Below, in pieces: positions 7,718 through 15,628 of a stretch of 64,000 nucleotides of DNA. Position numbers and translations under genes: made by a program. The stretch's first letter is position 1. Each line of letters begins with the position of its first letter. This stretch comes from Candidatus Babeliales bacterium (lineage in GTDB: Bacteria; Babelota; Babeliae; Babelales; Vermiphilaceae). The notes beneath the pieces are model-generated. The model was not told the DNA's origin, did not search any database, and saw only the letters and a list, made by a program, of their open reading frames with translations. The stretch covers positions 608,001 through 672,000 of the forward strand of contig CAVUQO010000003.1 of the NCBI GenBank assembly GCA_963743635.1, given 5' to 3'.

Positions 7718-10462
7718 TCACTGGAAGTTATATTCCTTGCAGCGGCGGTTGACGGAAGAGCGGTTGACGCCGAGAAATGCGGCGATTTGATTTTGGTTTT
7801 TGAATTTGTTCCAGAGTATCGTCATCGTCTTATGATCGCGCAGCGCATGTTTGCCCATGCGGGCTGCTTGGATGAGTGTTGGATCGCTCACCGTATATGC
7901 TGGATCAAATTGAGTTTCTTGGTAGATATGATTCTTTTTTGATTTATCGATGAGTAGTTGTTGAATACGTTTTTTCAATGCAGTTAAACTTACTGGACGT
8001 TGATGCGCAAGTTTGTTTTTTTCGCTCGGCGTGAGCTCAAAGAGCGTTTTGAAATCGTTGACCGTGAGTGCTTGCTGTGTAAAGCCATCAGCGAGTGCGT
8101 GCAGTTCGTCTTCAGGCAGTGTCAGCAAAGATGGCATGGAGAGAGTTGTTCTTTTTAATTCGTTAAACAGTGCTTTGGAGAAGATACCTTCTTGTACGAG
8201 CGCTTGTAAATTATGATTCGTCGAACAAATGACGCGCACATTACTCGCGGCGTGCGTATCACTTTTGAAGGTGCGATAGAATCCTGTTTTAAGAAACTCT
8301 GCCAAATATTCCTGCGTTTCAAGATTCATGAAATGCACATTTTCGATAAAGAGGGTGCCCGTAGTACTCAGTTTTTCAAGAAGCGGTTGCACACCATTTT
8401 CTATGCCGAGCATAGGATTTATACCGAATAATTTGATAGCAAGATCAAAATTGGTATTTGGGTAGTGCAATTTTATGACGTGCAGCTGTTCGCGCAGATT
8501 AATGTGATGCAATATTTCTACCGTTGCGAGAAGGTCATCTTCCGGCATATCGAGTAAAATTGCTTTTTTGGTGAGCGCAACTTGCAACAGTTCGATTTTA
8601 AAATTCAGGAGTATTTCACCAGATCCTGGAATGAGCTGATTGATGAGCCTTCCCGATTCGGTAGTTTCTAAATAGAGTAAATAATCCCACGTGGTAGGAT
8701 CTTGGAGTAAATCAATTTGTTTGGAAATAATATCGGATATATCGGGCCGGCAGATGGTGATGATAACATTATTATGCTCAAGATTGGGAACTGCGGAGAT
8801 GACGAGCTTGTTATCCGTTTGATCCTGCGTGAGTGCCGTTTGCGGCGCCTTATATTCCTCCACTTGGTGTGCGATGTGCCGTAGCGTTTTGGTGAGTGGG
8901 TGACCTTCTTGTTGGTTGAGGTTGATGTTGATCAAATCTTTAGCGATTTTGTTGCCGTAAATAAAACGGCGATTCTTATAAAACAGAATACCAATCTCTT
9001 TTTGCTTTGAATTACGCAGGAATGAACGCATGCTTTCTTTATATTGATTAATTTCTTGGTGTTTTGCATAGAGCTCTTCCTTGAGGAGCTTTTCTTGCTG
9101 AATGAGCCCATCAACACTGCGGTTTTGCAGTAGATTAATACTTTTTCCTAAGTAACTCGCAAAGACAAGCATTTCGTCGTGCTCAACATTGCCATAAAAT
9201 TCATGCTCACGCGCATGCCGTTCGACGATTATATAGGCGATAATTTTATTGTGTTCAAAGATGGGAATGAAGATATCCGCATTAATTGATTCAAGAAAGT
9301 TAAGGATGATCGTACGCGTCGGTTTTTGCTCGTAAAAATTACTGAAGGCTATTTCATCATGGATAAGTACTTTCATGCGGTTAATATAATCGCAGACCGC
9401 TTCATCATGCGTAGTCATGAACTGCTCTACAAACGCCTCGAGTTTTGAAGTTTCTCCGGATATTGTTGATTGCGCGACGTGGTTGAGGTTGCGAATCGAA
9501 AGTGCTGTTTTATTGCGAGGTATGTCAAAGGCGTTCTTGAAAAAATGCTGCGTCACTTGTCCGAGTTCATTGAGGGTTGTTGCCTGACTGAGCTGCTCAA
9601 GTACCTCTTTGAAATCATCGATGAAATCAAAATGGCGCGTTGACTGAACGTGATTTTTAAAATTAAGAAAGCGTAATCCTATTACATTTTTTATGCCGTA
9701 ATAAATGGCATACGTTATTAGGATTGTGGAAACGCTGACGATGGCATACAAATTTCCTTGCAGAAGGCCCCTAAAATTAAACTGACATGCTTGGAGTGTT
9801 TCGGTGATGGTATATGGTAATACCAGATATAAGGTGAAGATGCGGAGTTGTTTTTGCAGGATTTTGGGCACTTGTGATTTGCGTATGGTGCGTACTGCGG
9901 AAATAAGGATAGGCAGGGTGATGCATACCAGCAGATATATTGCGACGATGCGCATCATAAATGCTTCAAGGGGCAGGTTAGGATCAAGCATGGGAAGGCG
10001 AAAGGCTTCTCCACGCTCAGCTTTCGATATTCCGTTGGCAAAAAAAATGGCGAGCATCAAAAAATAGGCGCCGAATGCAGCACTGATGAGCGAGAATGTT
10101 TTATGAATTCTATTGAGCCGAAATGTTTTGGTTGAAAGACTCTCAATTAATAAGGCGAGTGATTGATATTGCAGTATGAGAAATGTCCATGATATTCGTA
10201 CGAAAAAGGTATATACCCCATATGGCATATCGGGAAAAGCGAGCTGACGCGCAAATTTTACGATCCATGCGAGATCACCAAACATTGAGCCGATGAGAGT
10301 GCAGAGCAAGAAGAGCCATGGTTTATTGAGCGGAGTGGTACGCAAACCTTGAGGTATAATTAATTTGAGCAAATAGGTTTTGACGGCAAAAGAAATTAAA
10401 GTTGCGGTCATGATGAATCCAGGACTCGCTAAGATACGATAGATTTCTTCGATGAATATCAT
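7718..10462 (-). CDS. 7TM sensor - GAF/PAS-like - degenerate sigma54-interaction AAA - Fis-type HTH transcriptional regulator (copy 1)
   Basis: Seven hydrophobic segments in the first ~260 aa; GTLFIENVH, NVRVICSTN and LFNEL remnants of NtrC-type AAA; C-terminal [22 protein letters not shown]. Confidence 0.8.
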   Translation of the reverse strand: MIFIEEIYRILASPGFIMTATLISFAVKTYLLKLIIPQGLRTTPLNKPWLFLLCTLIGSMFGDLAWIVKFARQLAFPDMPYGVYTFFVRISWTFLILQYQSLALLIESLSTKTFRLNRIHKTFSLISAAFGAYFLMLAIFFANGISKAERGEAFRLPMLDPNLPLEAFMMRIVAIYLLVCITLPILISAVRTIRKSQVPKILQKQLRIFTLYLVLPYTITETLQACQFNFRGLLQGNLYAIVSVSTILITYAIYYGIKNVIGLRFLNFKNHVQSTRHFDFIDDFKEVLEQLSQATTLNELGQVTQHFFKNAFDIPRNKTALSIRNLNHVAQSTISGETSKLEAFVEQFMTTHDEAVCDYINRMKVLIHDEIAFSNFYEQKPTRTIILNFLESINADIFIPIFEHNKIIAYIIVERHAREHEFYGNVEHDEMLVFASYLGKSINLLQNRSVDGLIQQEKLLKEELYAKHQEINQYKESMRSFLRNSKQKEIGILFYKNRRFIYGNKIAKDLININLNQQEGHPLTKTLRHIAHQVEEYKAPQTALTQDQTDNKLVISAVPNLEHNNVIITICRPDISDIISKQIDLLQDPTTWDYLLYLETTESGRLINQLIPGSGEILLNFKIELLQVALTKKAILLDMPEDDLLATVEILHHINLREQLHVIKLHYPNTNFDLAIKLFGINPMLGIENGVQPLLEKLSTTGTLFIENVHFMNLETQEYLAEFLKTGFYRTFKSDTHAASNVRVICSTNHNLQALVQEGIFSKALFNELKRTTLSMPSLLTLPEDELHALADGFTQQALTVNDFKTLFELTPSEKNKLAHQRPVSLTALKKRIQQLLIDKSKKNHIYQETQFDPAYTVSDPTLIQAARMGKHALRDHKTMTILWNKFKNQNQIAAFLGVNRSSVNRRCKEYNFQ

Positions 10463-10494
10463 TTTTATTGATCTTGTGTTATGGTCCCGTTATA
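10463..10494 (-). promoter_or_regulatory. Conserved leader/promoter of regulator copy 1: TATAACG-N12-AAGATCAATAAA-N-ATG
   Basis: Identical motifs and spacing upstream of copy 2 (15436-15467). Confidence 0.6.
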
Positions 10495-10639
10495 CTACTA
10501 CGCAAATTGTATAGAAGTATTAACACTAAAAACGCAATATGTTAAGCATTAACTATTTTTGGGTATTACTTTCTAGTGTTGGAAAAATTGTATTGGTGAT
10601 GTATTCAATGTTTTGGTTATAACCTTAGGGGATATTATT

Positions 10640-10762
10640 ATGATAAATCGTAAAAAATTATTGAGACTTGGATATGTGATTGTGTTCTTTAATGTGGGAT
10701 GTGCATTCGCAGCATGGCCGCCACCACCAGATGATGCTCCTCAGATGAATATCCAAAAGTAA
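10640..10762 (+). CDS. Small secreted peptide precursor 1, MINRKKLLRLGYVIVFFNVGCAFAAWPPPPDDAPQMNIQK (40 aa; not in ORF track)
   Basis: AGGGGA RBS, basic N-region plus hydrophobic core plus AFA cleavage motif, hairpin terminator directly after; divergent from regulator copy 1. Confidence 0.7.
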   Translation: MINRKKLLRLGYVIVFFNVGCAFAAWPPPPDDAPQMNIQK

Positions 10763-15435: not shown

Positions 15436-15467
15436 CTTTATTGATCTTATAAAAGGTTGTCGTTATA
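15436..15467 (-). promoter_or_regulatory. Conserved leader/promoter of regulator copy 2
   Basis: TATAACG-N12-AAGATCAATAAA-N-ATG, as in copy 1. Confidence 0.6.
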
Positions 15468-15523
15468 ATATAGTTCATACTGTAAATTAATTTAGTTTTA
15501 AAACCCCCACACAGGAGAACTGT

Positions 15524-15628
15524 ATGTCTAAGTTAATCACATTGATTAGCAAGATAAGCAGAGCACATGTTGCTTTAGTTTTATCGGTTGTTGCCTATTT
15601 GCTAGGTGATTATCCACCAGGCGATTAA
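15524..15628 (+). CDS. Small peptide precursor 2, MSKLITLISKISRAHVALVLSVVAYLLGDYPPGD (34 aa; not in ORF track)
   Basis: Strong AGGAG RBS at 15513-15517; hydrophobic core and short YPPGD tail; divergent from regulator copy 2. Confidence 0.7.
   Translation: MSKLITLISKISRAHVALVLSVVAYLLGDYPPGD

Follow-up and report, generated by a model that had tools for sequence, protein, structure and literature searches.

The 64,000-nucleotide stretch of DNA analysed here (the window; contig CAVUQO010000003.1 of a Candidatus Babeliales bacterium, phylum Candidatus Dependentiae or TM6, positions 608,001 to 672,000) carries two paralogous genes for membrane-bound transcriptional regulators, each standing head-to-head with a very small open reading frame (ORF). 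Regulator 1 (7718..10462, minus strand) is an intact ORF of 914 amino acids and faces small ORF1 (10640..10762, plus strand); regulator 2 (12716..15435, minus strand) is frame-split, by pseudogenization or assembly error, and faces small ORF2 (15524..15628, plus strand). The initial annotation of this DNA had read the two pairs as candidate signalling systems in which a secreted peptide may be recognised by a seven-transmembrane (7TM) receptor fused directly to a DNA-binding output. Comparison with relatives across the lineage shows that a conserved two-gene module, composed of a 7TM one-component regulator and a micro-peptide, is well supported at the sequence level.

The architecture of regulator 1, as modelled by AlphaFold2, comprises an N-out 7TM domain (residues 1-266), a GAF-like domain (~280-446), a coiled coil (450-484), a PAS-like domain (491-571), a degenerate NtrC-type AAA+ domain (616-843) and a C-terminal helix-turn-helix (HTH; 861-910). 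The predicted local distance difference test score (pLDDT) of the full-length model is 83.8, and the model of the transmembrane (TM) part alone is a confident N-out bundle (pLDDT 93.2, predicted template modelling score 0.91). The seven TM helices claimed in the initial annotation are borne out by these models (residues 14-41, 47-75, 81-110, 118-140, 165-195, 200-226 and 235-266). The GAF- and PAS-like regions are modelled as two alpha/beta domains with the long coiled coil between them, and residues 861-910 as a helical bundle. Placing the HTH in the cytoplasm turns the N-terminus and the loops 76-80, 141-164 and 227-234 outward. The cytoplasmic-side loops of the 7TM domain are rich in Lys and Arg, as evident from the sequence, and its helices hold the conserved polar residues K28, D63, W66, R89, W92, Y99, E166 and Q205.

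All the matches listed in a Foldseek search of the TM-only model against PDB are class A G-protein-coupled receptors (GPCRs), and all are weak (best E 1.9e-3, none at E<=1e-3; TM-score 0.47-0.60; identity 9-17%). The N-out, C-in topology is common to the 7TM domain and these receptors; membership is not claimed. In a language-model search with the 7TM domain, 27 of the 30 matches carry PF16927 (HisKA_7TM), with a score of 0.91 and in 18-59% of the cluster members; membership of that family is not supported by a hidden Markov model scan, in which 0 of 34 sequences matched at E<=1. Both resemblances are leads only.

The NtrC-like AAA+ remnant noticed earlier proved to be real. Pfam Sigma54_activat matches regulator 1 with E 3.1e-11, covering only profile positions 91-167 of 168, and residues 612-837 align to NtrC4, NtrC1 and PspF when a 60-member family profile is compared with PDB (E 2.4e-18 to 1e-15). 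Foldseek matches of the domain comprise NtrX (top), FlrC, PspF and DmpR, with E 1e-8 to 1e-6 for NtrX, FlrC and PspF. In the family profile alignment Walker A (GxxGxGK) is not kept, ITGESGTGKE of NtrC4 lying opposite 'lelpeeDllp', nor is Walker B (hhhhDE), GTLFLDE of NtrC4 lying opposite GTLFIkN; the Asn residue at the Walker B site (Asn708) is invariant in 60 of 60 family members. The loop which we take to be the one named GAFTGA, its position being read off the NtrC4 and NtrC1 rows, is likewise not kept and lies opposite 'ilgleek'. With all three motifs replaced, the domain is read as ATPase-dead and without sigma-54 contact; it retains the fold but has lost the requirements for both functions. 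No rpoN was found among the scanned ORFs of the window.

The GAF/PAS-like region of the initial annotation is suggested by language-model look-alikes (score 0.90-0.91) and by marginal Pfam matches among 32 full-length relatives, GAF_2 or GAF_3 being detected in eight (E 0.011-0.19) and PAS_8 in one. The proposed Fis-type HTH is weak in the window protein, where the Fis model reaches E 0.0027 on the final ORF piece of regulator 2; HTH_8 is matched in 14 of the 32 relatives (E 1.6e-5 to 0.21), above the Pfam cut-off in one only. Neither a kinase nor a receiver domain was found in the window protein, the 32 full-length relatives or 21 mid-length relatives.

Regulator 2, the paralogue of regulator 1, is distributed over four ORF pieces on the minus strand (14407..15435, 13518..14309, 12973..13521 and 12716..12985). 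By tblastn, the paralogues share 37% identity in the TM region, 59% in the centre and 47-67% in the C-terminal part, in agreement with the earlier remark that the cytoplasmic halves are similar and the TM parts diverged. The claim of two paralogous genes of ~900 amino acids holds for the paralogy and for the intact regulator 1; regulator 2 is not one gene in this sequence. Its homology passes through frames -1, -2, -1 and -3 with further switches at ~13400-13550, giving at least five frame changes, none of them at a long homopolymer, and the N-terminal piece of 342 amino acids is its only open ORF. The view of regulator 2 as a certain pseudogene was withdrawn once frr (25614..25976 and 25891..26217, minus strand), pyrH (26199..26597 and 26302..26874, minus strand) and mnmA (31895..32197 and 32214..32765, plus strand) proved to be split between two frames as well; the other long genes of the window are intact. 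Splitting of the essential frr and pyrH indicates indel errors in the assembly and so weakens pseudogene calls in the window. Judged from the sequence, assembly indels are as likely as real decay to account for the frame changes of regulator 2.

Small ORF1 encodes 40 amino acids from its ATG, with AGGGGA 8 nt upstream, and ends in ...AAWPPPPDDAPQMNIQK. It has a basic N-terminus, a hydrophobic stretch, an AFA-A signal-peptidase-like site and the tail AWPPPPDDAPQMNIQK, and its predicted signal peptide is textbook-like. Small ORF2 (34 amino acids, AGGAGA upstream, ending ...LLGDYPPGD) is a canonical family member with a basic N-terminus, ~14 uncharged residues and the tail GDYPPGD. The tiny head-to-head ORFs with ribosome-binding site, hydrophobic leader and Pro-Pro tail that had been described are thus both present. 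When both strands of the 64 kb were filtered for ATG ORFs of 18-75 amino acids with a Shine-Dalgarno (SD) sequence, a hydrophobic stretch and Pro-Pro within the last 16 residues, exactly these two ORFs passed. They had been called unannotated, which is correct for ORF1 and not wholly so for ORF2, whose exact sequence is an unnamed predicted protein in public collections, as is the case for 5 of the 10 small ORFs looked up, ORF2 included. ORF1 is atypical in starting 178 nt from the regulator ATG, compared to ~60-110 nt elsewhere, and in its longer post-proline tail. A word-based homologue search with ORF1 yielded no candidate, a result which is uninformative for a divergent peptide of 40 residues. 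A hydrophobic ORF of 27 amino acids without SD or Pro-Pro (10539..10622, plus strand), 77 nt from the regulator ATG, occupies the small-ORF position of the relatives, and ORF1 comes after it; it may have arisen by chance or be what is left of a decayed copy.

A sigma-70-type promoter (TTGATC-17-TATACT; 10468..10496, plus strand), with its -35 box 6 nt from the regulator start codon, reads toward ORF1; judged in the window alone, this match is not above chance. Another (TTGATC-17-TATAAT; 15441..15469, plus strand) reads toward ORF2 and nth (endonuclease III, HhH-GPD; 15711..16388, plus strand), the conserved neighbour downstream of the small ORF in clade A, the regulator clade described below that contains regulator 2. 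Among 66 upstream regions of the family, a promoter of the form TTGnnn-N16-18-TAnnnT within 70 nt of the regulator ATG and directed toward the small ORF is present in 57, both window regions included; it is mostly TTGATC or TTGCnn, N17, TATACT, with the -35 box ~8-10 nt from the ATG. Transcription of ORF1 would end at a bidirectional intrinsic terminator (10779..10820) situated 17 nt past its stop and also past the convergent beta-propeller gene. This 19-bp hairpin between an A-run and a U-run has a stability of -26.6 kcal/mol (z -7.7; 0 of 200 shuffles as stable); a simple terminator scan of the ORF1 region listed none. Between ORF2 and nth no terminator was found. The regulator genes lack an SD sequence (10463..10475 and 15436..15448, and the same place in 87 copies), and the bases ahead of the regulator ATG are the reverse complement of the -35 box of the small ORF (..GATCAATAnnnATG). 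The regulator strand of the 87 regions showed no conserved promoter, a lenient -35/-10 pair being present in 24 of them at scattered positions.

Conservation of the pair was assessed in 69 public loci from species-representative genomes, which hold 92 regulator copies. The locus titles are nearly all Dependentiae, Babeliales or uncultured bacterium, and the best relatives of regulator 1, from Candidatus Dependentiae or Babeliales, are named 'sigma 54-interacting transcriptional regulator'. One locus (L049) is titled uncultured Acidobacteriaceae and other regulator-bearing loci uncultured Pseudomonadota; these labels probably reflect binning or labelling rather than a wider distribution. An exhaustive HMMER search with the TM domain among 1.84 billion representatives recovered 288 at the cut-off of E<=1e-3, and the long ones are all of ~870-1050 amino acids. 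The 21 mid-length relatives checked contain the AAA+ remnant in four cases and no Pfam domain in 17, an alternative output domain being found in 0 of 21. The lack of any other output domain among the relatives indicates a single architecture, in effect limited to this lineage.

Where at least 300 nt precede the regulator (64 loci), the divergent strand was scanned, within 450 nt, for an ATG ORF of 18-75 amino acids with a hydrophobic window and Pro-Pro in its last nine residues. Such an ORF is present in 56 of the 64 loci, in 54 of them also with SD, as compared to 0 of 64 when the strand of the regulator was scanned, 0 of 1280 shuffled regions and 5 of 700 flank windows. Counted per regulator copy, the strict form accompanies 75 of 92 (71 with SD), and 88 of 92 when variants are included. 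Of the remaining 17 copies, eight have an ORF of lower hydrophobicity with WPP, YPP or APP at its end, five a single-Pro variant (YPGG, WPTG, MPGS, TPGG and WPIR) and four nothing. The divergent Pro-Pro ORF seen twice in the window is thus general upstream of the homologous regulators.

Two or three regulators occur in 28 of the 69 loci, and the downstream tandem copy carries its own small ORF, convergent with the upstream regulator. The cultured strain Noda2021 (locus L021) is among the carriers of the tandem module. In the usual layout nth and its preceding small ORF diverge from regulator A, which is followed by an opposite-strand small ORF, regulator B and a xerC/D-type recombinase gene. 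A divergent ORF of 208-239 amino acids lies upstream in 42 of the 64 loci (HhH-GPD in 10 of 10 sampled), and a frequent downstream gene of ~305 amino acids is a tyrosine recombinase in 8 of 10 sampled. This XerC/D-type recombinase is usual after the last regulator, sometimes with a 4-nt stop overlap (loci listed: L002, L003, L015, L027, L036, L055, L058 and L066). As the downstream copies keep their small ORF without a gene after it, the ORF belongs with the regulator and not with nth. The window keeps the usual gene order with insertions, namely a YVTN beta-propeller gene and two AAA ATPase genes with others, and its XerC/D-type tyrosine recombinase (683..1687, minus strand) lies ~6 kb further on, behind the inserted genes.

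The median peptide is 32 amino acids long, carries a net charge of +2 at its N-terminus and has 13 residues in its uncharged stretch, proportions which, as far as sequence can tell, resemble those of a signal peptide or a short hydrophobic peptide (SHP). They share the motif [D/E or R]-[F/W/Y/M/L]-P-P-x(1-3)-stop, the stop coming 1-3 residues after Pro-Pro in 53 of 57 peptides and 1-7 residues after it overall. Three precursors repeat the unit behind a signal-like leader: DDFPPMG, DDFPPMG and DEFPPMG in locus L058 (3709..3894, minus strand), two GGPPG units in L029 (3721..3906, minus strand), and WPPIL and FPPIL units in L055 (2715..2825, minus strand). Two tandem small ORFs occur in L036, L047 and L065. 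These features point to the tail as the probable functional unit of the peptide. A Pfam/NCBIfam scan of 51 peptides matched no family (best E 0.027, no family matched by more than two).

Coding constraint on the small ORFs, whose conservation the initial annotation had left to be checked, is seen in the codon positions, the open frame and the retained Pro-Pro. Differences at codon positions 1, 2 and 3 number 51, 27 and 69 in six closely related pairs of equal ORF length. Small-ORF identity is 59% vs 85%/86% for the two flanks, and 69% vs 87%/75%; the ORF changes faster than the flanking non-coding DNA yet keeps its frame, hydrophobicity and Pro-Pro. Eleven different Pro-Pro codon pairs are used among 76 ORFs, near the background Pro usage, and this free codon choice indicates that the constraint acts on the protein and not on a DNA element. 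The explanation of the small ORFs as a by-product of a conserved DNA element was rejected on the grounds that the Pro third positions vary and the ORF is less conserved than its flanks.

Co-divergence of peptide and receptor, expected in the initial annotation, is evident at two levels: peptide class follows regulator clade, and tail divergence tracks the TM domain and not the cytoplasmic part. A FastTree phylogeny of the TM domains (87 rows) resolves two supported clades, clade A (63 rows), which lies next to nth and contains regulator 2, and clade B (24 rows), the downstream copy, which contains regulator 1. Acid-type peptides fall in clade A in 33 of 35 cases; Arg-type peptides (R-[YWFM]-PP) fall in clade B in 10 of 10 cases, with none in clade A. 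The main difference between the clades lies in the outward-facing loop between TM4 and TM5, lengthened in clade B by an insertion of 10-12 residues; a charge-complement rule between peptide class and this loop was tried, and no clean rule emerged. Partial Mantel tests show a correlation of the tail with the TM domain when the cytoplasmic part is controlled for (r 0.20, equalled in 0 of 2000 permutations), and none with the cytoplasmic part when the TM domain is controlled for (r 0.002, equalled or exceeded in 950 of 2000). For clade A alone, the corresponding values are 0.205 (0 of 2000) and 0.019 (680 of 2000). These results fit a peptide-receptor pair and are supportive, not decisive.

By analogy with the streptococcal SHPs, the micro-peptide may be an SHP-like signal sensed by the adjacent 7TM one-component regulator, in a module that is core to Candidatus Dependentiae; this reading, the most likely of those considered, is given about an even chance of being right. 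Within it we infer export, processing, binding, the direction of regulation and the diffusibility of the signal. The small gene would be transcribed from the near-consensus sigma-70 promoter abutting the regulator start codon, to give a precursor of 20-60 amino acids with a positive N-terminus, a hydrophobic stretch of signal-peptide length and, at its C-terminus, the short unit [Asp/Glu or Arg]-[aromatic or hydrophobic]-Pro-Pro-x(1-3)-end. The hydrophobic part would bring the precursor into or across the inner membrane, and the C-terminal unit would be exposed or released outside by signal peptidase or an Eep/RseP-type protease, as for the streptococcal SHPs. The released unit would be sensed by the outward side of the 7TM domain of the neighbouring regulator, and the signal would pass via TM7 through the GAF-like, coiled-coil and PAS-like parts to the ATPase-dead AAA+ domain, acting in oligomerisation. 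This would set the DNA binding of the C-terminal HTH at sigma-70 promoters, the shared divergent one probably among them, and a feedback loop would result. Tandem regulators with their own, different peptides could form separate channels. A further proposal is tentative and rather doubtful, namely a phylum-wide peptide communication in which a short secreted [D/E/R]-aromatic-Pro-Pro peptide would be recognised at the cell surface by a GPCR-like 7TM receptor that is at once the transcription factor and derives from a disarmed sigma-54 activator. If true, tandem duplicates with differing peptides would provide separate channels, which might convey how many bacteria the host vacuole contains or what developmental stage they have reached.

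Several observations weigh against the sensing of an exported peptide. Asp or Glu two residues ahead of Pro-Pro is limited to 26 of 57 peptides, and L048 and L057 pair Arg-type peptides with a short clade-A-like loop. The peptides of the sub-clade nearest to regulator 1 are amphipathic, with interspersed Lys, Arg and His (e.g. ...KDLLRWPPTQ), and lie below the hydrophobicity cut-off, and on this basis signal-peptide export in the sub-clade appears doubtful. Adjacent genes are co-inherited, so that clade agreement and Mantel correlations are possible without interaction; Mantel tests are moreover liberal on tree-structured data, and co-inheritance of neighbours accounts for part of the apparent co-divergence. 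The clade A small ORF, with no terminator before nth, could be an upstream ORF of nth. One of the two window regulators is frame-broken in this sequence. Lastly, the genome paper on Chromulinavorax, a Dependentiae isolate, states that quorum-sensing mechanisms are absent (PMC6561590), a statement which rests on known systems.

The same observations can be examined under other explanations. The small ORF may encode a non-diffusible inner-membrane protein which, much as MgrB does with PhoQ, would modulate the 7TM regulator through contacts between helices, either as a co-receptor or by feedback inhibition, and would convey no cell-to-cell signal. The conserved pairing, the promoter and the co-variation fit such a protein equally well; its hydrophobic stretch abuts the Pro-Pro unit, most tails are of 4-6 residues, no consistent signal-peptidase site is present, and the conserved neighbours of the pair are nth and the XerC/D-type recombinase, with no gene for export or processing among them. 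The median uncharged stretch of 13 residues is, however, short for a stable span (at least 18 residues in only 12 of 78), the two- and three-repeat precursors of L058, L029 and L055 fit the release of short units better, and the hydrophobic part evolves almost freely as the tail motif is retained. Modulation within the membrane is therefore considered unlikely, though it keeps some weight. If the small ORFs are real membrane or secreted peptides with a function unrelated to the regulator, they would merely share a compact, vertically inherited intergenic region with it. In reduced genomes linkage alone would suffice for this, given the conserved housekeeping setting of nth, regulator(s) and xerC/D. 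Such ORFs are, however, nearly confined to regulator upstream regions (64-kb window, 700 flank windows), and the small ORF accompanied the regulator on tandem duplication or on its move, as for regulator 1 behind the inserted beta-propeller gene, which makes an unrelated function highly improbable.

Ribosome stalling at Pro-Pro is EF-P-dependent, and PPG, DxPP and PPP are strong pause contexts. The small ORF might accordingly be a cis-acting leader in which a Pro-Pro pause controls its own transcript (nth in clade A) or the regulator promoter region, the peptide having no target. Pro-Pro placed 1-3 codons ahead of the stop is the only invariant feature (53 of 57), and PPG, DxPP and PPP are common among the peptides. 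The clade A ORF lies ~55-80 nt upstream of nth with no terminator detected, and the ORF promoter overlaps the 5' region of a regulator gene that has neither SD nor recognisable promoter. A leader of this kind has no need, however, for the basic N-terminus and hydrophobic stretch kept in 75 of 92 copies; the Pro-Pro-to-stop spacing varies over 1-7 residues, and the tail co-varies with the TM domain of the regulator and not with its cytoplasmic part. The tandem arrays and ORF1 also have nothing co-directional downstream, a terminator or a convergent regulator lying there instead. A pausing leader is thus judged distinctly improbable.

Other genes of the window may be mentioned briefly. Directly downstream of regulator 1 lie two paralogous AAA ATPases (5140..6420 and 6456..7592, minus strand; Pfam AAA, E ~1e-24), which may be co-transcribed with it (gaps of 125 and 35 nt). 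Both start with an N-terminal hydrophobic leader, in one of them followed by a Pro-rich stretch (...SVQAYWLYPSPPPPTAPVTPP...) that recalls the AWPPPP of ORF1. Between the two regulators is a protein of 471 amino acids with a signal-like N-terminus and YVTN/lactonase-type beta-propeller repeats (10916..12331, minus strand); in related loci the regulators are in direct tandem without this gene. Eukaryote-like or unusual genes at 44328..45458 (minus strand), 47753..52175 (minus strand) and 56153..61733 (plus strand) include a leucine-rich repeat protein, three tandem WD40 paralogues of ~580-630 amino acids, and a protein of 1229 amino acids in which DUF4379 zinc fingers are fused to an SNF2-type helicase and a methyltransferase, with another DUF4379 protein after it.

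Dependentiae (TM6) are intracellular parasites of protists, including amoebae, with small genomes and few recognisable regulators, and about four strains have been cultured. A regulator that is core, vertically inherited and equipped with a peptide gene of its own would give a first handle on the timing of their intracellular cycle. The module is compact, with one regulator, one gene of 30 amino acids and ~250 nt of control DNA, and is testable in a heterologous host. Searches of open-access PubMed Central (PMC) and bioRxiv found no paper tying Dependentiae to sigma-54 regulators, peptide signalling or 7TM transcription factors, which is in line with the earlier statement that no description of the arrangement was known. 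The Chromulinavorax genome paper lists only merR, yebC and fmdB as regulators (PMC6561590).

An SHP-like peptide sensed at the membrane, the reading favoured above, finds its nearest working analogue in SHP/Rgg, and one SHP study describes precursors divergent from rgg, a mature part beginning at Asp or Glu, and one mature SHP, DIIIFPPFG or FPPFG, with an aromatic-Pro-Pro unit (PMC3679016). The two systems share a divergent short hydrophobic peptide gene beside the regulator (here in 75 of 92 copies by the strict definition, 88 of 92 with variants), an active part, putative in the present case, made up of the last few residues, and the possibility of several paralogous pairs per genome. They differ in that Rgg is a soluble cytoplasmic receptor with an N-terminal HTH that needs re-import of the peptide; no domains of such an RRNPP receptor, with cytoplasmic tetratricopeptide repeats and N-terminal HTH, were found in the regulator, and Dependentiae have another cell envelope and are obligately intracellular. 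The present receptor is no relative of Rgg, and sensing of the peptide would take place at the membrane, as in the Agr and Com systems, though without a kinase.

In the AgrD/AgrC and ComC/ComD systems a small precursor is sensed by a polytopic receptor encoded nearby, and peptide and sensor domain diversify allelically. Their receptors are histidine kinases acting with a separate response regulator, whereas here the DNA-binding domain is on the same chain. ToxR and CadC, in which a winged-helix domain at the N-terminus binds DNA and a single TM helix leads to a periplasmic sensor, likewise unite sensor and DNA-binding output in one membrane polypeptide without phosphotransfer, but the present regulator has its 7TM sensor at the N-terminus and a putative Fis-type HTH at the C-terminus. 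TyrR and NtrX are sigma-54-independent relatives of the enhancer-binding proteins which keep nucleotide binding and lack the GAFTGA loop. They resemble the regulator in joining an NtrC-type AAA+ domain to a C-terminal HTH without GAFTGA, and differ from it in that here Walker A and B are replaced too and the input is a 7TM domain rather than a receiver, ACT or PAS domain. With MgrB, which modulates PhoQ, the module would share a tiny hydrophobic protein that acts on a membrane sensor and may close a feedback loop; the mgrB gene does not neighbour phoQ, however, the periplasmic portion of MgrB is longer, and its target is a histidine kinase. The ingredients, namely peptide autoinducers, polytopic sensors, membrane one-component regulators and GAFTGA-less relatives, are known; their combination is not. 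If the proposed sensing is true, the module would show enhancer-binding proteins put to a new use, that of an ATPase-dead scaffold, and would represent a third peptide-sensing layout beside membrane histidine kinases and cytoplasmic RRNPP receptors, in which a 7TM domain is fused to the DNA-binding output.

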